Notes: generated by a model not told the origin, from the letters alone. DNA of 64,000 nucleotides from Moniliella sp. 'wahieum' (GCA_003971905.1 RSEE01000052.1:372001-436000), one strand, 5' to 3'. Counted from the stretch's first letter, positions 1 through 64,000 are shown. Numbers and translations are program-made.

Positions 1-2246
1 GCTTCATCATGCAGACACCACCCACGGAGGTGAGCATAGCGCCTATACGAAGAGCATTACAACAGCAAGAATCCCGCTCAGGCAGCGCCAAAAGCTGTGT
101 AGAGTAAAAGGCGTTGAGGATGCTATTTCTAAGCAGCCTGTGGCATTGAGAGACCCCTGAGGCTCAGGCCTGAGGATATACTCATAACTCAGGCAACTCT
201 CCAGTTATATCATTACTCAGTTTCCGTCGTAGTGTTCATAATACCCTTTCCAGAGCTTAAGGATTGATACCTGAACAAAGAAACGCTGCAGTGCCTATAT
301 CAATCCGAACACTACTTTCCCTTTCTCTGGTCGAAATGCCACATGATATCGATTCCACGTACTCAAAGTTCCAGCTAGATCAGTCGAAACCTCGTTAGGG
401 AGCTAGGGCTTCTAAAAAATGGGCTGTCACATTTGCTAGACACATCCGATAATAGGGCCCGGTGTCACTTCTTATCGCGTTTGGGACCTGAGAGATCAAT
501 GGGGCCCCAGGCGGCCGAAAGTAAGTGCTGATCGGATCGTTGTATGCGTCCTACTATAACAGTTCTATCTATGCGGTTGTTCTTCTGCCTAAAAGGTGTC
601 AGGACTGTGGTGGAACCCGCGGTGAATGGGCGAAACTCATGTTGATATCCGTCGTAGGACCGCAGAGGCTCCCACAGTCACTTGTGAGTCAGCTCATTTT
701 TTTCCGCTCCTTCATAGTTCATATCTGTTTTTTTCCGGACTCTTCAAGCGCAGATGCCCCTGCTCTTCGTCCTTAATACCGTCGTTCAGTATACTAGTAG
801 TGTAGGAAGACCGGAACCACTGATTGAAGCTTGAGGAGCTGTGACATGTGAGGGTTCCTCTGGCATGTGGCTTATATTCCCAGGATACGATAATGAATGG
901 TCGGGGCTTGGCTTTTGAAGCACAAGGGTACTAGTAGTAGTAGTTAGAGAGAGGACTGTCCACATATTGCAGCGTTTCGATGCTAAACACTTTGTTGGAT
1001 GAGTACTGAGTACTGAGTATATAATATGGGATGCATATGTGTGTGATATTATATGCGAAAAAGAGGCAAAAGGAGACGTGTACTATCGAAGAACTCCAGT
1101 TGGCTCAGCCAGAGTATGTGTGTTGACCTATAACGAGCCGTCGGAATTGATGAATTTTAACCAGAGTACTTACTAGTTAGGTCTGGGGGCATCGGCATAC
1201 CTAATATATGGGAGGTCGAAGGATAGGCACACAGGCCACACACAGTGAGTGCACAGGAGAGAAAGGAGGGAGCAGGGGGTGTAGGCATGCTGGCACGATA
1301 CCCGCAGCGGGGAATCCGGTGGAAGCGGAAGGACCCTGATCTTATCGGCTGCCAAGATTGTTTTGGACGACTACGGTGCGGGGTGGTTGGGTTGCATGTT
1401 GAAGGCGAAGAGCGGAGAAGAAGTGAGACGCATGCCAACCATGGCTCCCAGGAGAGAGTGCATGTGTGGGCACGTATATTGTGTGAGACTCATCTCATTA
1501 CCTTGGGTTGATGCGCTGTTGGAGCGACGAGCGATAGGGAGTATCTGGACTCAGACTAGTGTGTGTAGAGGACCGAGCGAAGACTCGGGACGTCTGTAGT
1601 AGGCCCAGTGGCATGTCTCTAGTTCCTGGTCACTGCATGTACCTGCCCCCCCCTGCCGTGTGCACCTGGGCAGTGTCATCGGCACCTGTCACCGGTCACC
1701 GGTCACCTGTCAGCCGTGCCAGCGTGGGGTGGCATGCCGTCTGTGTCACATGTCATGCACCATTGATCATCCATGTTCCACCTGCACACAGGCGCACTGC
1801 GCTAACCCCGCCTTGTGGGTGCGTGTCACATGTCACATGTCATGCATCATGCATCATGAACCACTAGCGTACTGCGGCCTGAGAATTACTCACAGTCTCA
1901 GTACTCGGGACGGAGCTACGACTTGTTACATGTTACAGCTTGCCGCGCCAGACAGACGGGCAAGCAGTATGCGGGGCAGCTGGTGTGTTCCTCTCTGCTT
2001 CCTCTGAGGCCTCACCACTCCCAGCACTTGGCCAAGCCAAAAGCCATTTCATTGCACACTACTGTGCCTCTCTATGTAACATGCACTCATTTAAGAAGGG
2101 CCAGCCATCCGCGCATCTCTTTTTCCAGCCTCCATCCTCCCTCCCTCCCCCTCCCCCCCCCCACCCCCCCTTCCCTCTTCCTCTTCCCTCACGTTCTTTG
2201 CCCCCCACGGTCTTTGCCTATCTTCTCTCCCCCACCCCCCACCAGA

Positions 2247-5960: not shown

Positions 5961-6229
5961 TATGGCCGCTTTGGATACCGACATGGCACAACCGGTCTAC
6001 GGCCGTGACTGCGAGGGGTTGGGAGCGAGAGTTCTGTTAGGATGTCGGATAGAGAGCATCGATCGTGCCTGTATACTCCCGGCATAGCCGGGCCATATTC
6101 CTGTATTTAGCTTAATTGTGCGCCTGTGGGAGCAGGATTTGATGAGGTGCGAGGAAGGCGAAGAATGCACGTAGGTTCAGCCCGGCACGCCTTCCCGCCT
6201 TAGACCATGGCACTCCTGCATCATGATAG

Positions 6230-7720
6230 GCTTCAAGTTAGCTTCACGCTTTTGTGAGGCTAAGCGCTAAGCCGCTAAGGTCTCAGCATCTCAGGCCTTA
6301 ATAATAGGCCCTTAGGCCTTAGGCCTTATCGATTTTCGATTATCGATTAGATCGATTATCATACAATCTCAGATCTTGTGTGGACGGAGTTGGGGGGGGC
6401 TTGGCCCTCTGGTCTGGCGCGTTCAGAACGTTGTTGAACGTGTTGAACGCGTTGGATACTTCATCGATGGTCGATCGAGATGATCAATTACCGGTTACTA
6501 GTTACTAGTTACTATAGTTACTAGTGATAATCGATAATCACTTTGATCACTAATCATTAATCATGCATCATGCACCTAGTCACTTTAACCACACACGCTG
6601 TATCTCTATAGAAGTGGGAACCGTGGCTAAAAGCGCAAAGGTGGCGAAGAAGGCCGGTGGCTAAGGTGGCGATGGTGGAACGGTGTGGCTTGCGACGCAG
6701 CACCCAGGGGCACTAAGCTGGGTGACCGGTGTACCGGGCTGTAGGCCCGCTGGTCTCCTCGTCTATTAGAGGGCTTCAAGCTTACCGGATAACCGGTAAC
6801 TAGAACTACGAGAGTAACTCGTAGATGGCTATTGTTCTGCTTATAAGATCTAAGTATAATAGTCACTAGTCACTAGTCAAAATGTTCAACGTTCACTAGT
6901 CACTAGTCACTAGTCACTAGTCGCTGAACACAGTCTCACTCTGAAAGAATCGGGCTCTGAAGGATCTGAGATCTGAAGCCCGATGAGATCGATGATCGAT
7001 GAGTTGATGAGGCCGATGAGAGGTCGATGATCGATGAGGGCAAAATGCACCTGCAGGACGATCGATGGGTGAGGACGAGTAGTCGCGATCACCTCGATCA
7101 CCGGGGAGAGTATAGACCGGGGTTGTCCGTTAACATGTAGCAGTGGGGAGGATAGCCACTAGTTACTAATTCGATAACCGGAAACCTTTGATCTTCAAGC
7201 TTCAAGCTTCTCAAGCTTTCCTGCCATATACGAGTGTAGCCAGCCACTATTACTGTCACAAGTCACCCATGTCACCATTAAGTGGTAAACACACACCTGT
7301 AAACACACTTGTCGCTCTACTATTTATCACAAGCGTCACGCGTCCGCGTCACCCCGACGGCCACAGTACACAGACAGCGACCGAGTAGTCACGGTGACAG
7401 TAGTAGTTAATCACTGTGACGACCGCCAGTACTGTTCAAGCAAAACTACTCAGTTACTGAGTGTACACATTACCTCAAGCTTCAAGCTGCTCTGTATGGC
7501 CCTTTCAGGCTGCGGCCAGCTGAGGCGCTGAGGCTGGCTGCTGAAAGTCTGGGATCTTGGATATTGAGCGCATTGAATATTGAGCCAGCGTCTCACAAGC
7601 TACACGCGTCGATGACACGATTATGACAAGCGCTTGAAGCGTAAAGCTTGAACAGCCTTTTGGGGGCTGTGCCTAACGCGTAAACGCCGCAGCAGTCGTT
7701 CTCATCAGCATCAGCTCTCT
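6230..7720. repeat. Dense cluster of palindrome-plus-spacer heptamer arrays
   Basis: (AGGCCT-T)2(ATCGAT-T)n 6314-6356; ACCGGT-T-(ACTAGT-T)n 6490-6525; (ACTAGT-C)n with AACGTT-C 6865-6921; (AAGCTT-C)2 7197-7209. Confidence 0.9.
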
Positions 7721-8046
7721 CAGCTCAGTCACGGGCCAGCTCCAGCTTCCACCTTCAAGCCACGCTCTTTCGTGACGCTGATTGAAACTTCCTTGAAGCA
7801 TCAACTAGGCTTCTCCGGGCGCTTTTTGTGTTGGAATTGAGTTTGGCTCTTGCTTGCGACAGAGCAACCCCCTCGACGCCCTCCCTTCTGTGGAAGAATC
7901 GCCTCCTTCGCCTGAGGTCTTGGACTTTTTGCTCTTGATCTCGTCCTTCCATCGCCACCCCCTACACCCCCTACACCCTCTATTATTTCCCTACGCCCCT
8001 ACGTCCCTCTAATCCCCTTACACCCTCAACACCCATCGAAGCCACC

Positions 8047-11000
8047 ATGAACGCCCACCGCTCCGCCCACTCCCTCGACCAGACCTTCCAACCACTTCCT
8101 GACGAAGCTCGGGCTATGATGGGGTATTGCCCGGTGCATCTAACGCGTCTACCGACCCAGCCTTGCTTGCTCCATCACGGGCGCCGCATGAAGCTGTAGC
8201 CGGCACAGACCAAAATGGTCCCGACTCCTGCAGCCACGCCGCAAGAAACGAAATCGGTTGACGCTCAGTTGTACCCATTGTCGGTATGTGTTGCAGTTCG
8301 ATGATTCTTTCGCCACTTTTTACTAATTCCTTATACGGTCTCTGTGGCGTACCTTTGGTTTCCACTACTCCAGGGAGCGCAAGATCAAATGTTCCCGATC
8401 CGTACCCTGTGACCAGTGCAGCAAGCGCGGCGACGCGGACACCTGCCGCATTGTTCCTTTTAAGAATCACATTGTCTTCCCGCTCTTTGAGGTGGACGAG
8501 TGCCGGGAGTATCCAGCCGATGTTCGCCCTGAGGCTCCTCTTCAACACCCCGGGCAGCATGGGTACGAGCAAACAGGGTTTGGACCCAGGCATCCCCCTC
8601 AGGAGCGTGGGTCTCATCATTCGTACCTCCCCTATCACAACCGCTTGACCAATTCTGATTACCTGCATCAGGCACCCCCACCATCCGTTAGTTCCGGCGG
8701 TCAAGACCGCTGGTTCGAGTCGTCACGACCCATTCAAACTCAAGTTGATTCAGTGGATTCGTGGAACCCACCCGAGAGCGCCCCTTTTCCCGGGGACAAC
8801 AGCTCGTCATCCGCGACTGTTTCCCCCCGTACCCATTCTTCATTTGCAGATCACAGCCAACAGTGGGCCTCGCCAATAGCGACACAAGAACGCTCTTCGG
8901 TGCGCCACGACTTTCCTTCAAGCTCGTCTATGATCCCTGCGGTACAAGCATATCCTCCTCCCCCACAACCATCCGGACAGGTGCCCTTGTCTGAGCGCAT
9001 GGACGAGTTGGCTTGGGCCCATGCGCGCATCGCTCAGTTGGAGAAACACGTTGCCTCCTTAACCGTTGAGTTGGATGAAGTGCAGACGCGGTCAGAGGCG
9101 CAAGCCGAAGAAAGGATCCCATCCCTCACTTACCTTCTGTCCCGTACGGGCTTGAACAACTACCAGATGGCTTCGCGTGGGCGACCTCGCAAGCCCCACG
9201 CTCCACGTTTGGCCCCAAACAGTCAAGCAACTGACGTGGATAATGCGGCGACAGTCTTGGAAGGGTTGGCTCTGGGAGGAGCACAGCACACTCGTCCTGA
9301 TCGGGCCAATCGCTCCGTAGGAAGCAGGGCGATTCATCGCGTGCCTGAGGATCCATCTACCATTTCAACCGAGCGATTGCTCCCACACGGATCGGCGTCT
9401 GAATGTTTAATCACTAACTGCCCAGAGTGCTCGGAGCACCGCCAGGCCGTCGCAAACGCCAGTATGAACCCTTCTCTAAATGCAACGGATATTCTCGACC
9501 CGCGACGGATTGATCCTTTCGGTCCGCTAACGGGAGAGCCGCCTCCAGTGCCTACAACAACGGGAATGGGCCAAAACTATGTATCGGCCCAGCTTCCAGC
9601 TTCTACATCTTCCCACGCGGGTCTTCGGGCCAGCTAGACAACTATCGTGATGACGAGGAGGAGTCCAGCGGGGGGTCTAGCTCAACCAGTCCCAGGGGCG
9701 TCTCGGAGCATAGGGATCACAAAGTGCCTCCGTACGGCGCTTATGCTCAATCCGCCAAATTGGCAGTGCAAAATCGTGGTCTATTTCGCCTCAAGCAAGG
9801 ACCCGACACACTTTTGGGATGGGGTATGGGATGGGCTCTTGGCTCAGCCGAGGTTGCTGCTGAGTACAATACCATCACCCCTACTCCTCCGTTTCTTTGT
9901 CCGGGTGCACCCGAGCGCGAGTCAGTCTTGCGCAGTATCATCCGGTCCTTGCCCCCCAAAAATATTACGTTACAACTGATTGACGTTTATCGAACCAGAG
10001 TTTACTACCTCACTGGCCATGTGGTGCACGTCCCCTCGCTCCTGCGTGAGGTGGAGAGGTTTTATGATTTGCCTTCGGTGGAAATGCAAGCCCGCATCGT
10101 CAACCACCTCGATCCGGGTTGGCTGGCTCTCCTTTTGATGGTGCTGGTGCTGGCGATGCAATTCTATCCCAACCCCGGTCACGCGCCAGAACATTATGCC
10201 AACATAACTTTTCTATTTGACGGCCGCACAATCCACACGTGGTATTCTGCGTTCAAAACTGTGCTGTTGCTGGCGGGGTACATGGCGAGCAAGAGCGTCA
10301 CGGTTCTCCAAGCCATCCTACTGGCCGAGCTGTTCAGTGCTGAGAGCGATGAGGAACAGGCGGCGCTCCTTAAAATTGCCATCAGCACTGCGGTGAGTAT
10401 GGGCCTTCATCGGATGGGAGATCTCCACCGTCTCCCCCAACCGGGAGAAGCACCTGGTACGGTCATTCTTCGCGAGACCTACTACCGCATCTGGTGGACG
10501 CTTGTCTGGCGCGATTGGTGTGCTTCCGAGACAACGGGGATGTACACCATCCAGCGTAACACATTCAACACCCCTCTTCCGGGGAACTACAATGATGTGG
10601 ACTTGTGTCAAGTTCAGCTCCCCCCACCTCATCCTGATGAAGTTCATACGGAAATGTCTTTTGTGCTCTCCAAGCTCGCCTTCGCCGACATCGTTCGTCA
10701 AACCACCGATCTGCTCAACGATCGCGACTTGAGTGGACCACATAACGGATCCAGCCGCCGCCTTACGGCAGAAGATACAGGCCAACTTGACAAGCGATAT
10801 CGTGCTTTGCTTTCTAGTCTCCCTTCCTTCTTTTCCCGCGATGAGAATCGGGCGCAAGTAGAGTTGGGGTCGGATGTATCCGTACAGCGCTGGCTATTGC
10901 ATCAAGCCGTATTCTCCAAGTTGCTCCGTCTGCATCGTGTGGCGCTTTCGTCGGACCTCGAAGGGCGAGGGGTATGTGTCCGTCTTGCACGTTATATTCT

Positions 11001-12157
11001 TGCGATGCAGCGACAGCTGCGCTCCATCTCCTCCCGTACAATCGTCGATCGTCTCTGGTTCATCATTCTTCAATCATTCAACGCAGCTGTCGTGCTTCTC
11101 TTTGACCTCTTGTCTGCACCACCAGCAGACGAGAGAGAGAGAGAGCATGCACTTCGGGATGTTCAAGAAGCCATCAATGCACTTGATAGCGTACGCACGA
11201 CCTCGCCCTACACTGCTCGTTCGCTTTCTATCCTACGTGCCATGCAAGCTGCGGAGAAGTCACAGTGGGACTCGTGCCAGCGCCGCTCGTCTGACCCGTC
11301 GAACTCCCTCAAGCGGCGTCGGGGCCAGCAGACCAACGTTCTCGATCTTGCCCTTCGCATCAAGGAGCAATTGAGTCTTCCTCCAATAACCCTCCTCCTG
11401 CCGCTTCCCCCACTGCAAGCAGAGAAGAGCGCCCCCTCCGTCGAATTGGATGAAAGGCCTCCTCCTGAGAAAGTAGCCGCCCCGGTTTTCAGTGGGTATA
11501 CCGACCCTACCATTGTTTCTGGACTTATCTCGGGACGAGCTCCAGGAACAGTGCGGCTATGAAGGCGAAATCGGCTGGGCTGCCTCTTACGGCTGATTTC
11601 CCCTACCTTCTTCGTCCACCCCCTGGCGAAGGGCCTTTGGACCTGCCTGCTGTCGCACCCAATGGCTCCGATCTTTTCTCTTTGGCAGTGGGATCTCCAC
11701 CGTCCATGTTGGAATTCTCCAAACCCGGAACTTTGCCCACTCTTCCAGTCCAGTCCTTCGATCTGCCCGCATTTTTGCCTCGCATCAGAACCCCTCTGTG
11801 GTCTCCACCCACCCAGACTTGGGGCCAAATGCAGAGGTACCAATCCTTGGACACCGGACCTCACTCCCCGCATTGTCTTCCTCTGCAGTAACCGCCCGAT
11901 CGGCGGATGGACTGGTGCTTGACGTGACAGGAGGAGAAGCAAGGGAAGTCAGAACACCACCCCCCGCCGACCCCACCAAGGCAGATGCAGTCCTTCCACG
12001 CCAGACTCGATTCACTTTTGGAGTGGGTTCTGTCTGGATCAGCCCCCTTGCGCGTAGGATCCACCAACCAGCCACCCCTGGGCAACTGGCTCCACTGGCC
12101 TCCGAACAACAAATTACTGGAACCGCGCGCACCACCGGCTCTAGCAAGTGGAACTAA
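8047..12157 (+). CDS. Zn(II)2Cys6 fungal transcription factor with fungal-specific TF (middle homology) domain; intron ~8284-8373; frameshifted
   Basis: Spliced translation RKKRNRLTLSCTHCRERKIKCSRSVPCDQCSKRGDADTCR; ORF 9724-11562 has AISTAVSMGLHR, ETYYRIWWTLVWRDW and FNTPLPGNYND. The 3' end is uncertain. Confidence 0.9.
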
Positions 12158-26466: not shown

Positions 26467-27450
26467 GCTTCCCATGTTCTTTCTTGTTTCCCGTGTCTTG
26501 TCGCGCCGTATTGCGCTTCCTTGGGCTCCCTTCACGGCCCTTGCATCCGAGCAACGTACGCAGGCTAGTCTTGATCTCTCTCTCTGTGCATTCATAGCGG
26601 TGCGGGGCCAACCAAGTAGGCCTACCTCCTTGGCTCTTCCGTGTCAAGGCGTATGTTGCCCTTTGGGAGGGCCACTGCTCCCCATGCCCCCCCTGGCTGC
26701 GTCCATAGTCCGCAGCTAGGCAACTTCACGACACAAGTATTAGGCCACAGCTTTGCAACTCCAAATAGCTTCTTGCCAGGCCCGCTGGACACTGTGACAC
26801 CCGGTATGCCCGTCTGCGTGTTGAGATGCAAATCCGCGGCCTCAGAATTTAGAGGCGTTAGGCCTTAGGCGTTAGGCCAAGGCCCGTTTCGCGTCAGGCC
26901 TGGCCCAATCGGCCGGGGAAGATCGCTGAAGCGCGAAGCAGCTTAACGCGCGCGTGAAGCCGAACCGGCTGAGCCCTGAAGGGCACAACCGGTTGGGCCT
27001 GATTAAATTCCACGCCACGGCGGATGACACCCCCGTGCGGACTGCCCATGGGCGTTCTTGTGGTTCCCTGCCCCTTTTGTGGCTCTGCTTCACGAGAGGC
27101 GGCTGCAGGCCACCGCCAGCCAGGCCGCGCACAAGCGCAAGTTGACCATCGAGCCATGGAGTCAGGCCTTCGCACCTTCTCCGGTTAGCGATCAGCTTCC
27201 GCTGGCGCCCTAGCTGGCTAGGAGTTGACGCGGCATGAGGCCCAGGGCTGAGGCTGAGGCTGCGCGCTGGGGCTCAATAAGCGCTTAGGCTAAGCTCGCC
27301 TGGCGGCAATGGCTGATCAGATGATCGATGATCGATCAAGCGCCTCGGGACGCCCAGGCCAAATCAAAAGCCACGCGGGCCATGTGATTTCAGTTGCAGC
27401 TTGTCTTCCCCCCCCCACCGTTTTCCTCGGCCTCGCCTGCCTCGTCCATC

Positions 27451-28819: not shown

Positions 28820-30720
28820 ATGAACGGAACCCAGAGTGGAAACACTCCGTCTCCCTCGTCGCGTCCTGCCGCTGGCCAGCGCGACCTCACCTTCACCAAC
28901 AACTTCTGGGTGCGTTTTCTATTTTTTTCCCTCCTTCTCATCTTCGTATTCATCTCCACTTGGCCTGCTGGGCTCAGCGTCTGGTTTGCTGACAACCTTC
29001 CTTCCCCCCCCCCCCCAGGGTGAAGGCGACGAAGGTTTCAATAGGGTCATCTGCCGTGTAAACGACACGGCCAAGACCTTGGACAACTGGGCCGCCTATT
29101 GCAACGATCGCGCTCAGATTGAAGCGGACTATGCCCGACGCTTGACCCAACTGGCCCGCAAGTCAATTGGCGAGAATGGTACTGGGTACGTGCTTGGGTC
29201 TGTCACGCGTATGAGAGTGCCTGACTTTTTGCCGCCAGGGACATGGGCGCAGCGCTGGCCACGTTGCAGCAAAAACGGGACGCATCGCCCAAACACACGC
29301 TGCTATGGCCAAGGAGCTGGAGGATGGCGTGTCTGGTGAGGTAGCCCAGTTTCAGAAGGACCATGCTGCCTTTTTCCCCACCTCGGTGGATACGATGGTC
29401 AAGGAGACCTCCATCAAGCGCAAGCATGTTACCATGCAAATCCAAGCGCAAGAGACGTACCAGACCCTGTGCCGCAAAGTCAAATCTTTCGCCGCTCACA
29501 TGACGGTTGTGCGGGGCCGCGACCTGGAGCAAGCCGAGGCCAATTTGGAGGCAGGCTAAGCAGGCCAGGGCCGTGGCCGAGCGGGATTATCGCCAACACA
29601 CCATGGCCGTGCGCAATGCCACGCACAAGTGGAACAAATATTGGAAAGCGTTCCTGGACCAAGCTCAGGATGAAGACGAGGAGCGAACCAATTTCATCCA
29701 AGGAAGCTGCTGGCGATACGTCGATGCAGTGGCCACAGCATGTGTGGAAGACGACAAGGCATGTGGAGTGGTGTATGATGCATTGCGCACCATCGACGCG
29801 GCTCGTGACTCGGCCAACTTTGTTGCCGAATCGCGGACAAGCAACTATGTGGTTGAAGCCCCTGCATTCATTAACTTTGCCCAAGATCAAACCCGACCCA
29901 CGAGTCTGCCTTACGGTATTGCTGGCTTCACTCGTTCCTCGAGACACGACCCTGGGCACGAGATCCCTCCTCAAGCGCCGCCCGAGGATGCAGGCACACC
30001 ACCGCGGATGACTCTGTCGCCGCCCCCCCTTGTAGGGGAATTGCAAGCACCCTACAACCCCAAACAGGGTATCCAACCCGGACCGATGCGGACAGACACA
30101 TCGCCGACTCCCCCGTCCAAGGAGCGGACGTCCAGCTACCCGCCCACCGTCTCTTCCAACCAATCCTTTGCAGCGCGCCAGCCTCCCACCACCCACAGCT
30201 CCTCTTTCTCGTCCAACTCCATCGCCCTGCCCCAACACGCGCGGTCCCAATCTTTGCCATGGGAGTGCGCCCTGACGCAACCAACACAGGTGCAGCAGAG
30301 AGAGCGTGTATCGGTGGAAGATCGGCTGGCAGCGATGCTCCCTCGCAACCAAATCGCCAACGCAAATACGCCACCTCCCTCTACCGTCGTGTACGAGCCC
30401 CGAAACCTGCCGCAACAGCCGGCTCAGGGGAGCGGGGCAACCTTTTCCTGCGACCCTCCCCAACCCGTTTCCGGATGAAACGGAAAGCACGCCGCTTCGT
30501 TCCCAGTCGGGTGTGGACCAGCCGCAACAGGCTACCCAGAATCAGATGCCTCCGTCGGACGCAGCGCAGTATATGCGTGCGTATCAGCGCCGGCAGTCTG
30601 GAATACCACCCCATTACAATGAAGCTTCCATGGGCACCTCCGTGCCCCCTCCTATTTAAACCCGATATCTCACCTGCACTTGCACCTGCACCTACACCTG
30701 CGCCTGCTCCTGCACTTACA

Positions 30721-30805
<85 letters not shown>

Positions 30806-31291
30806 TGCTCCTGCTCCTGGAACCGCACCAAAACCAGAGCCAAATCCACGTCCACCAGTGCCAGCGCCAGCGCGAGCACCAACTGCGGCTCCGCCTGCTG
30901 CGACGCCGTACCTGGCGGGAGAAATGTATCCCTCCTTTTCTTCCTCTGAAGCTTCCCAATCGCTCAATGGGCAGCATATCCCGCCTCCCGAGCCAGAGGC
31001 TGCGACGGCGCCTGTCCCTGGCCTCCCCTCGGCATCGACCCAGCAGCCTCTCTCTGGCACCACTGCTACGAATGCTTGGACCCAACCGGATGGACGGAGA
31101 GTAAAGTTTTTCGTCAAGGCCATGTTTGATTACACGGCCGCGATGGACAGTGCGTTTTCGTTTACGAAAGACGATGTGATTGCGGTCACGGCCTGTCCGC
31201 CCAATGGTGGTGGGAGGGCGAGTTGATGGACGAGGATCGTCGAGTCCAGGAGCCAATAAGTTCCCGTCCAACTTTGCGAGTTTTTATTTAA
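28820..31291 (+). CDS. F-BAR (FCH) plus C-terminal SH3 protein, Cdc15/Hof1-like
   Basis: FTNNFW|GEGDEGF, YCNDRAQIEADYARRLTQLARK, QDEDEERTNFI; SH3 FFVKAMFDYTA...FSFTKDDVIAVT...FPSNF; Pro-rich linker. Confidence 0.85.
30673..30818 (+). repeat. (CCTGCT)n hexamer microsatellite, probable Pro-Ala linker
   Basis: Long run of cctgctcctgct... Confidence 0.95.
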
Positions 31292-31305
31292 TCCCACAAC
31301 TATAT

Positions 31306-31497
31306 TCCTCTTCCTCTTCCTCTTCCTCTTCCTCTTCCTCTTCCTCTTCCTCTTCCTCTTCCTTCCTTTCCTCTTCTTCCTTCCCTCTTCCTCTCTTCCT
31401 CTTCCTCTTCCTCTCCTCTTCTCTCCTCTTCCTCTTCCTCTTCCTCTTCCTCTTCTCTCTTCCTCTTCCTCTTCCTCTTCTCTCCTCTTCCTCCTCA
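31306..31497 (+). repeat. Pure pyrimidine (CTCTTC)n microsatellite
   Basis: ~190 nt of C/T only, immediately 3' of the F-BAR-SH3 gene. Confidence 0.95.
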
Positions 31498-47193: not shown

Positions 47194-47807
47194 ACACGAT
47201 CTCAGATCTCATGCCTCACCCAGCCCGCTCGCGCCACAGCCCAATACCGCTTCCTCCATCCACCCCTCCATCCCTCCATCCCTCCATCCATCTCGGGACA
47301 CTGCTCCCACCCTCCATCCTTTCCTTCGCCCTCTCCCTCTCCCTCTCTCCCTTTCCTTTGTCCCCCCCCCACCACCTGGCTGTGGTCCCCCATGTATTCC
47401 TGCCACTACCTCCCGTACCCTGCGCTGCTCTGCTCTCCTATCCCCCCCCCGTCCCCTCCCTCTGCGCAGTCGGGCCTCGGGCCTCCTTGCTTGTTTTAGT
47501 TTAAGGCCCGTGTGTGGTGCGCTCGCCAGACTGCCCGAACATTGACTTAGTTGTCCTCCCCGGTCGTTGCGTTGTGCGTTGTGCGTGGTGCGTTGTTCGT
47601 GTCTTTGTGCTTGGACGGCGCGGCAGGATGAATGAGGCTGTAGGATCCCTTGGTGGGTGGCGTGCCCCTGCGACGGGGATCTTCCAATGCGCGTCTCCGC
47701 GGGTGCTAGTGGTAGTGGTAGTGGTATAGTGGTAGTGGCAGTGGCAGTGTAGCACAGAGAGAGCCATGCACTGAGGCTCGGCCACCGGGGCTGGGCCCAG
47801 CGCTGAT

Positions 47808-47978
47808 ATCAACGCCATCAACGTGATCAACGTGACCAACGAACGTGATTAACGTGACCAACGGGATCAACGTCACCCGCGTCACCAACGGGATCAACGT
47901 TACCAATGGGATCAACGTCACCAACGTGATCAACGTGATCAACGCGATCAACGGGATCAGCGGGATCAATGCGGGGAT
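47808..47978 (+). repeat. 9-bp minisatellite, consensus A(T/C)CAACG(T/G)(G/C)
   Basis: atcaacgcc atcaacgtg atcaacgtg accaacg... atcaacggg atcagcggg atcaatgcg. Confidence 0.9.
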
Positions 47979-49112
47979 TGGGCGGCTTCCATGGTCTGCC
48001 CCCCGCGTAGGTAGGGTGACGCGGTGACGGTGTATGCCTACCGTCAGGCGTCAGGGCTCTGGCGGAGCGATCCCTCCATGAACGAGTGACTGATCGTGAG
48101 ACGTTAGTACTAGTAGTGATCCCAATCGACCCCTCACGCCGGCAGTGCCTACCGGAGTGCTAGTGACGAGGAGTCGTGGCTGAGTGGTCGGACCGTTGAA
48201 CGGAGCAGGCACGGTGGGACGCGGGAACAGATCGAGCAGCAACAGCGAATCGTAGCTGCCTTACTTCGTGGGCGGTTTTTTGCATACGCCAGGTTTCGTA
48301 ACCAGAGGTCGCAACTGGCTGGCGCTTCAGTTCAAGTAACTTGTTACCCCCCACCTTGCCTTGAAGCTTGAGACCGTTGCCAGATACTAGTTACTAGTTA
48401 CTAGTTACCGCATACCCACCATTCATGGCCGGTTAAGGGGGGGGGGGGGCTTGTGCATGCCACCCAACTGAAAAATACGATTGAGCTCTGGCCGACGAGG
48501 AGGCACTCGTGGGTGCGCTTCCAGGTGGAGGAGGATGCAGGGAGAGGGAGAGTGATGAGTTCAGTCCTGCCGGTCGCCCACGTGGCGGTCCTACCACACT
48601 GACGTAGAGCGCTGACCAAGTACGTGGACTCTGTAAACTGCCTACGAAGACGCAGCGCTGTGACCTGTGTCTGGCCTGCAGTGGCTACGCCTGAGGTTGA
48701 TGCAGATGTTGATGGTTGTGATGATGGTTGTGATGATGGTGATGAGGGGCCTTGATCTTGGTCCTGTGGCCCGCAGAGAAGCGGAGCCGAGGACTCAGGA
48801 CTCAGGCTGACACTTTGGACTGATGTGGGCGTATCGGTGCGGCACCAAGTTGGAGAACCACAGCGGCGTTGAGTCTGGCCCACTGGTTGCCCACAAGGCG
48901 CTAGCGCTGTGGAACACTGCGTTGTAGCTGCTCCGGGCGCTCGTAGGGCGCAGTGCATCACCTACTGTAACTCAAATTGGCGGCCCACCTATTCAATACA
49001 ACTACCTTAACCGGGAGGACTCGTGACTAGACTACAGCGTCGAAGGAAGCCATTGGATTGTCGAATGCACTCCGCCCTCTCTTGTCCCCAGTGCGCTGCT
49101 TGGCGGGGTGGA

Positions 49113-53694: not shown

Positions 53695-54569
53695 GGCGTC
53701 GGGAGGTGTAGGGTAGGGGTGGGTAGGGTAGTGGTAGTGGTGGTGGTGGCGGACCAAAGTAGCCAACCGAGGCGCTCGGCAGGAGCGACATGCGACACGC
53801 CTCGCGCCACCTCCCACCTCCGCCCTGCTCCGCTCGGCACCCGCCCCGGCTGCAGCCGACAGGACACTGCCCCCGCGCGGGCTGCGCTGGGCGGCTTGGC
53901 TCGCCGCTGCGGAAGACTGCGGCGGGCGGAGTCCGAGGGCAGGGGGGGGCTCTTATTTATTGCACTCCGTCCGTTCGATCGTCCCATCGATCCCGCCCAT
54001 CGCTCATCCTATCCATATCCAGCGGTACTTGACGCGCCACTAGCCACGCACCAACCCCCTCGATCGCCCCGCCGGTGGCCAGCAGAGAGCGCAGTGGACA
54101 CGCGTTGCTCGCTGACTCTCGCGTGCCAGTTGGAATGTGCATCCACATCTACATCCGCATCCACCGCCGCACAACAATCGTTGGTTGTGTGCCTCCCAGC
54201 CGTGTCAGTGCTCTCATCCTCCTCATCGGCAGCATTACAATTACAACACACACCGAGTGGTGGCAAGAGTGCCGGGTGGTGTTACATGTCATGGGCGTAG
54301 AGCCCCGTAGCACTATAACAACGCAAAAGAACCTCATAATAGATGATATGGTACAGACTCCCTATCGTATGATACCGATTGAAGCCAGGGAAGCAGCCCC
54401 AAGCACACCCCCAAGAATAGCATCAGCCAGAACGAAAAGAAGGAACAGAACGGCTTGGCTGCTGGAACGCAGCACCTTTGCGCTGTGCAAGAAAAAATGG
54501 TTTGTTTGGAAACGATCGTGAGGCAACGAAGAGACATTATGCATTATGCATGATGCATGGTACTACTCG

Positions 54570-63280: not shown

Positions 63281-64000
63281 GGCGAGGCAGTGGTGGGGGC
63301 AGGCGCGCGAGCTGGGCCGGGGAGGATGACGCGAGGGCAGGCGCGGATGACGGCGGCGGGCACGAGCTCGGGCTCGGGCTCGAGCGCAACCCTCTGCTCC
63401 GCAGCGCTCCCAACTTGGCCCTGCGCGCAGAACACCGCCCCCGTGCCCCAGCCTCCCCACACCGCGTGGGGGCAGTGTTGCGCACCGACCGCGCCAGGCG
63501 TGCCCAGCAGCGCGGGGGGCCAGTGTAGCCCTGCAGTAGGGTTGTCCGTGCGGCTTGCCGTATGCCACGTGTAGCCTTGCACATCACACGTCACACATGC
63601 ATCACGCCACGCATATCACACGCCCCATGGGACCGTCGCCCAGCCGCTGCAGCATGGTCACGTGGCCAGACAGCATGGCGGATGCCAAGCTCTGCGGCAC
63701 CCAACCATGGACCGTCAGGCGTCAGGTGACGCCTCAGGCCCATCAGGTGTATCAGGATGCCTCAGGGATGCCTCAGACCATCAGGGGGGCGCGACAAGGA
63801 AGTGCCACCATCGCCTCCCCCTCGCCGTTAGCGTGCCCTTGTTGAGCCACCGGGTGGCTCGTGTGTTTGACCATTGAAGGTCACTTCGGTCCCTCTCTTT
63901 ATTAGGCCTCAGGCCTCAGGCCGCAAACCGCTTACGGTTCCCTTTTGTTTCTCTCTCGCTTCTGGTCCTCTTCGTTCCGCAGCATAGCCCCTGGTGGAGA

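Follow-up and report, generated by a model that had tools for sequence, protein, structure and literature searches.

T-N-A-centred period-7 arrays in promoter-like DNA of a fungus grow by copying five nucleotides and mirroring two

Upstream of a transcription factor gene, at positions 6230-7720 of a 64-kb stretch of fungal, GC-rich DNA (64,000 nt, hereafter the window), short palindromes follow one another every 7 nt, and neighbouring palindromes of one array can differ while register and spacer base are kept. How can an array of palindromes change its sequence without losing its phase or its symmetry? A sequence-only reading of the locus had proposed that the palindromes switch into one another and that their symmetry is actively restored, one half templating the other. 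The four arrays that it quoted are all present where it placed them, and the region does lie upstream of a Zn2Cys6 gene, as shown by a zinc cluster and a Fungal_trans domain downstream of it. The Pfam scan located PF04082 (Fungal_trans) within 9514-11562, and the Zn2Cys6 motif, at about 8250-8420, is interrupted by an intron at about 8277-8372. At 8048-8420, the gene appears to open with a short ORF that runs from an ATG at 8048 to a stop near 8197, in a frame different from that of the zinc-cluster exon; its model requires at least one more upstream intron, or another start. The window also carries genes for a sedolisin-type protease, eIF2-alpha, the FKS1 glucan synthase and further housekeeping functions.

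Period, spacer and outer letters of the arrays

Tandem Repeats Finder detected many short period-7 arrays across the window. Chains of in-phase 6-bp palindromes are most frequent at this period (32, the longest of 5 units, against 14-22 at periods 6 and 8-12), and so are perfect runs of at least two units (54 in the window, compared with 10 for period 8 and 17 for period 9). Nearly all units consist of T-N-A and a 4-bp palindrome placed after it, so that every hexamer takes the form A-NNNN-T. Links of the type TNA + 4-bp palindrome + TNA with the same N on both sides number 63 in the window, 25 of them inside 6230-7720, while 100 dinucleotide-preserving shuffles gave a mean of 2.07 and a maximum of 6. 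Between TNAs, palindromes of 0, 2 or 6 nt occur at chance level (37 vs 31.2, 7 vs 7.5 and 1 vs 0.53), links with complementary N lie slightly above the shuffles (6 vs 1.86), and outer letters other than T and A give 0-11 links. The spacer base is identical in 63 of the 76 TNA-pal4-TNA links of the window and in 25 of the 28 in the region; by our own estimate, composition predicts a share of about 30%. Random spacers between adjacent units, named beforehand as the outcome that speaks against the pattern, were thus not what we found, and the constant 7-bp register and spacer stand as observed.

The window contains 45 chains, 12 of them with at least two links, and 14 different cores. Each array is strand-polar, as had been claimed, and array orientation is mixed within the region. 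The spacer base follows availability, with 31 G/C and 14 A/T chains for 1658 and 568 sites, respectively. These features bear on the proposal that the arrays are selected protein-binding sites, for example sites of a dimeric transcription factor in the promoter of a regulator. Their location upstream of a gene and the resemblance of palindromic hexamers to dimer sites would fit, but the fourteen cores are each set by the neighbouring bases (see below), N tracks availability, orientation is mixed, and the same grammar is found in other spacers of the window. We therefore hold selected binding sites to be very unlikely.

Elsewhere in the window, some arrays keep the core and change the spacer: TTA to TGA (54537-54560), TTA to TCA (63902-63918) and TGA to TCA (27322-27338). 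These arrays, the converse of core switching, may reflect a point mutation followed by further growth.

The elementary gain of seven nucleotides

An unbiased scan was made for any 5-mer (W5) followed by the reverse complement of its last 2 nt and by W5 again, which together form a 12-mer. It returned 115 such 12-mers on both strands, of which 80 begin with TNA. Among TNAnn 5+2+5 repeats, in which the two copies stand at a distance of 7, the filler is mirrored in 80 of 101 cases; in the 15 other outer-letter classes, mirrored fillers amount to 0-7 of 14-92. Over filler lengths of 0-12, length 2 stands out (22.7 vs 6.7 per 1000 sites), and length 4 does so more weakly. The same rule governs perfect period-7 runs of 14 nt or longer, 14 of 14 in the region and 34 of 54 in the window. 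The scan thus demonstrates both a sequence rule and its specificity. The elementary change is a gain of 7 nt at a seed pq-TNA-xy, leading either to TNAxy-y'x'-TNAxy or to the mirror image pqTNA-q'p'-pqTNA. The right-type gain is xy + y'x' + TNA, and the left-type gain is TNA + q'p' + pq.

A related gain of 9 nt (7-mer, 2 mirrored nt, 7-mer) was found in 6 of 18 TNA-centred cases compared with 12 of 258 elsewhere, and it includes non-palindromic 7-mers at 7087 and 18111. The corresponding +11 class is empty (0 of 2), and non-palindromic TNA-centred 7+7 copies occur at 5 loci only.

Perfect signatures of the 7-nt event number 21 in 6230-7720, where they cover 147 of 1491 nt, and 55 in the window; shuffling predicts 0.02 and 0.23, respectively. 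They concentrate in ORF-free, promoter-like DNA. The interval 6037-8116 is the window's longest stretch without ORFs of at least 100 aa, has the highest T-N-A density and carries 13.9 signatures per kb. The ORF-free interval 48160-48403 (244 nt) is equally dense, with 16.4 signatures per kb; absence of ORFs is a crude proxy for non-coding DNA in GC-rich sequence, where 6461 nt qualify. The hot spot described by the sequence-only reading is therefore real (25 of 63 links, 21 of 55 signatures), though it may largely reflect the quantity of free, T-N-A-rich spacer.

Flank templating and growth in two directions

The rule predicts the core of an array from its surroundings, and the flanks agree. 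In 38 of the 45 chains, the native flank equals the adjoining half-core on at least one side, where chance would give 1/16 per side. The left flank matches in 29 chains and the right flank in 23: both match in 14, the left alone in 15 and the right alone in 9, and 7 chains have no match on either side. The flanks thus template the cores. The sharpest cases are ten same-core chains whose period-7 run is just 12 nt long, nine of them of shape (2,0) or (0,2). Such chains imply a duplication of 5 nt together with mirroring of 2 nt, and copying of a whole unit cannot yield them. The test is less clean for the 19 of 41 same-core chains with l+r of at least 3, for which decay of once longer arrays, fortuitous extension and copying of whole units are all possible explanations; the many with l+r of at least 4 are likewise compatible with whole-unit duplication or with decay of longer arrays. 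Palindromic seeds account for 11 of the 41 same-core chains, compared with an expectation of about 1 in 16.

Arrays with two cores are the most informative. Of the five mixed arrays in the window, four (1826, 6312, 6554 and 6886) have a left core that derives from the 2 nt to the left and a right core that derives from the 2 nt to the right, each being the reverse complement plus a copy of the adjoining 2 nt. Chains 1826, 6554 and 6886 match both flanks, and so does 6312-6361, though it is broken by one mutated spacer. A left core set by the left flank and a right core set by the right flank imply two series of growth from one T-N-A seed. As the mixed arrays show, growth turns a seed pq-TNA-xy into pq-TNA-(q'p'pq-TNA)m-(xyy'x'-TNA)n-xy. 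Mixed chains never contain more than two cores, and adjacent link pairs share core and N in 14 cases, differ in core only in 4, differ in N only in 3 and never differ in both. What had been described as core switching is thus the meeting point of the left and right series of one seed, and no palindrome is converted. The loci of the region, together with the clearest two-way array of the window and the downstream gene, are listed in Table 1.

Table 1. Seeds, growth events and neighbouring gene, with window coordinates
Feature	Position	Strand	Remark
Clearest two-way array: seed TG-TCA-TG; CATG x2 left, TGCA x2 right	1826..1858		Outside the region
Palindromic seed GC-TAA-GC, one +7 event (core GCGC), then 8-nt variant GCTAA-GCC-GCTAA	6259..6285		
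One seed CC-TTA-TC; left GGCC x2 (mirrors CC), right TCGA units (mirrors TC)	6310..6361		One mutated spacer TTT; one 9-nt unit (core GATCGA)
9-nt class: GTTGAAC, 2 mirrored bases GT, GTTGAAC; next copy degenerate	6433..6457		
TTA series: CCGG once, then CTAG units, one CTATAG	6488..6527		Right flank CT matches, left does not
Palindromic seed GA-TAA-TC, one +7 event (core TCGA)	6526..6539		
One seed AA-TCA-TG; one left event TTAA, one right event TGCA	6552..6572		Flanks ACTAAT, ATGCAC
Seed AG-TCA-AA, two left events (CTAG x2)	6861..6879		
One seed GT-TCA-CT; one left event ACGT, four right units CTAG	6884..6925		Last TNA mutated to TCG
TGA sites: TC-TGA-GATC-TGA, then 5-mer GATGA x8 across seven fillers	6965..7040		Mirrored filler TC n=3; others GATC, GTT, GGCC, GAGGTC
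+9 class: non-palindromic GATCACC, TC (mirrors first two bases), GATCACC	7087..7102		Points to 7-bp duplication
Palindromic seed CT-TCA-AG, core AGCT, plus 9-nt variant unit	7193..7216		
Seed CC-TCA-AG, one right event AGCT	7475..7486		Right flank only matches
ATTGAGC-GC-ATTGA-AT-ATTGAGC: one +9, one +7 left event; seed AT-TGA-GC	7563..7585		Probable event order
Zn2Cys6 / Fungal_trans transcription factor gene	8048..11562	+	First ATG ORF at 8048

In the array at 6965..7040, the fillers other than TC look like untemplated or mixed junctions.

These results leave little room for in-place conversion of palindromes, with symmetry restored by intrastrand templating such as quasi-palindrome correction or cruciform repair. 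Neighbouring units do change symmetrically, for example from CCGG to CTAG at 6488. However, all four quoted arrays can be explained without conversion, and the half-palindromes at their edges, AATGTT (6881), ACTAAT (6549) and ATGCAC (6570), are native flanks and not decayed palindromes. The step from ACCGGT to ACTAGT, said to need symmetric multi-base changes, takes a single C>T in the terminal copy plus templated addition; we infer that TTACC became TTACT in the end copy and that mirrored additions followed, so that the array reads CCGG and then CTAG. Asymmetric, mutated units persist (TTT for TTA at 6333-6335, TCG for TCA at 6921-6923); broken units that remain unrepaired argue against a restoring process, and the idea of active restoration finds no support. 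Single-strand hairpins predicted for six arrays range from -3.3 to -10.9 kcal/mol, and one of the six beats all 200 shuffles; such weak folds speak against a cruciform- or hairpin-driven origin. With no chain exceeding two cores, conversion appears highly improbable. The notion that one half templates the other was nevertheless right in spirit, since each palindrome has one half that was templated by the other.

Ordinary replication slippage of 7-nt units, with quasi-palindromic units favoured through slipped-strand fold-back, would leave short head-to-tail repeats in non-coding DNA as slippage-born micro- and minisatellites do, and the mechanism of growth may be shared with them. Multi-link arrays are indeed much more frequent than expected from independent events (two or more links in 12 of 45 chains), and the array at 6305-6362 folds better than 200 of 200 shuffles (z = -3.72). 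In contrast to slippage, which copies whole units of any sequence, the birth of the present arrays is bound to a rule of T-N-A, five nucleotides copied and two mirrored: T and A are near-obligatory (80 of 115), the 2-nt filler mirrors the flank in 80 of 101 repeats, and this one rule holds in 34 of the 54 runs of 14 nt or more. The ten chains with just 12 nt of periodicity and the two different cores on either side of one seed also contradict it, and five of the six folded arrays were matched by 6-132 of 200 shuffles. As the origin of the arrays, slippage is in our view quite improbable.

A possible origin in excision scars

A direct copy joined to a 2-nt mirror is the signature of a target duplication plus P nucleotides from an opened hairpin. 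On this basis, we think it more likely than not that successive excisions of a cut-and-paste element left the arrays as stacked scars, and that this element duplicates a 7-bp target with T-N-A at its centre. Such an element would insert at T-N-A and duplicate 7 bp; upon excision, a hairpin would close each flank precisely where the element ended. A host nuclease would then open the hairpins 2 nt past the tip, leaving 4-nt 3' overhangs xyy'x' and q'p'pq, whose 3' ends would be joined to the opposite recessed 5' ends. This would add 7 nt to both strands, with the right-type core on the top strand and the left-type core on the bottom strand, and replication or mismatch repair would fix one of the two. 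The product of overhang joining was derived by hand for one seed. The model yields a constant +7, exactly two alternative cores and self-reinforcing growth, and it predicts similar frequencies of the two cores, to be set beside the 15 chains with a left-only and the 9 with a right-only match. At palindromic seeds and in existing arrays, the two overhangs would be fully complementary, which would give a clean scar and provide more and better targets within the array; arrays would therefore grow and cluster.

A 5-bp duplication (TNAxy) with a one-sided 2-nt addition gives an identical main product. A 7-bp duplication, pqTNAxy, agrees better with the symmetry around T-N-A, with the +9 class and with the surplus of palindromic seeds, though the loci concerned are few. 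Products of sloppy end joining are not enriched in the window (TNATNA 37 vs 31; +11 class 0 of 2), so that repair would need to follow one course with unusual consistency. To reach 3-5 units, an array must either have been hit several times in one place or have gained units by slippage, which probably also feeds the growth of existing arrays.

We searched the window for the element itself. No transposase was found among the 43 ORFs of the 64-kb window scanned against Pfam, and no inverted-repeat pair in it was convincing. A search of the 64 kb for 7-bp TNA-centred direct repeats combined with inverted ends returned array-internal matches only, and inserts ending in CA..TG between repeated TNA-centred 7-mers were present in 14 of 1336 pairs of the window, none of them convincing. 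That no element was seen in the window would suit an origin without a mobile element, in which a host or domesticated nuclease, or another break-repair pathway, acts at T-N-A in open promoter DNA and the hairpin-capped or snap-back ends gain 7 nt. The unusual uniformity of the scars and their concentration in ORF-free, promoter-like DNA point in the same direction. Against it, a direct duplication of 5-7 nt is a normal by-product of staggered integration and not of a simple cut, and a staggered cut followed by nothing but fill-in should yield plain 7+7 copies, which in non-palindromic, TNA-centred form are limited to the 5 loci mentioned above. We know of no host activity that adds 7 nt at T-N-A breaks, and we consider an origin of this kind unlikely.

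The scars were compared with those of known systems. P-nucleotide scars at hairpin-opened ends are known from V(D)J coding joints and from excision of the Transib/RAG type, and an even-centred palindrome is to be expected if a hairpin formed precisely at the boundary is nicked 2 nt past its tip. The scars described here resemble these systems in their even-centred palindrome, with the last 2 nt of the flank mirrored (for flank hairpins, see the accessible part of PMC5499845): even-centred P nucleotides at the exact boundary are found in 80 of 101 TNAnn repeats, and the hairpin itself would be their putative source. They differ in that Transib/RAG produces 5-bp duplications and diverse joints, with deletions and untemplated bases, whereas the present scars are dominated by one product (80 of 101) and require T-N-A, and a duplication of 7 bp is suggested by some loci. 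The main 5+2 product agrees with a duplication of 5 bp but then needs additions on one flank only, and the 7+2 loci and the symmetry of T-N-A fit 7 bp better.

The target of hAT elements is nTnnnnAn, which does not fit the nnTNAnn of the scars. Ac/Ds and other hAT elements are otherwise similar in being cut-and-paste elements with flank hairpins and palindromic additions, and their scars are known in fungi: according to the accessible part of PMC5873905, P-nucleotide scars of Ac/Ds formed in Candida, and the Artemis relative Pso2 cleaves hairpins. The same part of that source describes hAT scars as centred on the complement of the element-adjacent base, which makes an odd palindrome. In the arrays, the junction is even-centred (xy-y'x') and the base before it is kept, not complemented. 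The odd-centred hAT signature is thus missing from the arrays, and we do not class the scars among hAT footprints. As regards duplication length, which is 8 bp for hAT and 7 bp for hAT7, the main product fits 5 or 7 bp, and the +9 class (6 of 18) favours 7 and never 8.

In the available part of PMC12730594, 7-bp duplications in basidiomycetes are attributed to hAT7 in rusts and to Kyakuja, of the KDZ group, in mushrooms; Kyakuja thus shares with the inferred element both the duplication length and a basidiomycete host. The supplement of that source, in its accessible part, gives consensus sequences of elements without target-duplication sequences. Excision through flank hairpins opened by host enzymes is described for hAT, Transib, RAG and MULE in the part of PMC5499845 cited above, which gives duplications of 8-10 bp for MULE; TNAnn repeats of the window are not enriched at these distances, save at the 9-nt period that corresponds to 7+2.

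The motif duplicated by PIF/Harbinger elements is TWA. Tc4 has a CTNAG target and duplicates TNA (bioRxiv 10.1101/2023.11.06.565293, accessible part), and duplications of 3 bp are given for PIF/Harbinger (PMC12730594, accessible part). Both types share with the scars a T-N-A-centred target in a palindromic context, but they duplicate 3 nt only and do not mirror the flanks. In the window, TNATNA is close to its frequency in shuffles (37 vs 31.2), and the cores follow local flanks (38 of 45 chains) and not element ends.

Several other schemes were considered and discarded. If element ends had stayed behind between 3-bp TNA duplications, the cores would not be expected to follow local flanks, as they do in 38 of 45 chains, or to number two at one seed. 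The products predicted from a 3-bp duplication with a flank hairpin, and those predicted from fill-in of a 7-nt staggered cut, are not enriched. For a hAT-type offset hairpin, reasoning through every register of a 7-bp duplication showed that no even-centred junction is possible (PMC5873905, accessible part). Our literature search found no published description of this lattice, and mitochondrial palindromic repeats, as treated in the accessible part of PMC7218506, are unrelated to it.

More tentatively, it seems quite possible that the scars were left by a new family of cut-and-paste elements, or by a transposase turned host enzyme, highly active now or recently in this fungus, with a T-N-A-centred 7-bp target and flank hairpins formed at the exact boundary. 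Such an activity would have left uniform +7 scars over about a tenth of a promoter region, creating palindromic sites and 7- and 9-nt repeats from scratch, and the two alternative cores would record which strand of a mismatched joint was kept. If the arrays are excision scars, the non-coding DNA of the fungus would be a readable log of thousands of insertion-excision cycles, from which the target rule, the position of hairpin opening and the mode of joining of an as-yet-unseen element could be read, and a basidiomycete would offer a natural assay of how hairpins are opened and ends joined. Promoters would then acquire short tandem repeats and palindromic sites in a rule-bound manner, and such arrays should not be taken for regulatory codes or for products of symmetry-restoring repair.

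Palindromes outside the 7-nt register were observed at 6460-6487 and 6780-6800. They comprise ATCGAT, TCGATCGA and TGATCA, as well as a complementary-spacer pair, TTACCGG/TAACCGGTAA, that forms a 10-bp perfect palindrome-like sequence; they may be decayed or inverted scars. The window contains other repeats as well. Long C/T-rich tracts with 8-9-nt repeats (CACCCCCTA, TCCCTCCA) lie directly upstream of gene starts at 7956-8040 and 47255-47460 and are free of T-N-A scars. The hexamer repeats CCTGCT x24.7 (30673-30819) and TTCCTC x32 (31305-31493) lie within or adjoin long ORFs and may be coding low-complexity tracts. An intergenic 9-nt minisatellite at 47808-47969, of about 18 copies, consists of the TNA-centred 7-mer GATCAAC and a 2-nt filler (GT, GC or GG), of which GT mirrors the last two bases of GATCAAC; it looks like the +9 (7+2) class expanded to a long array.
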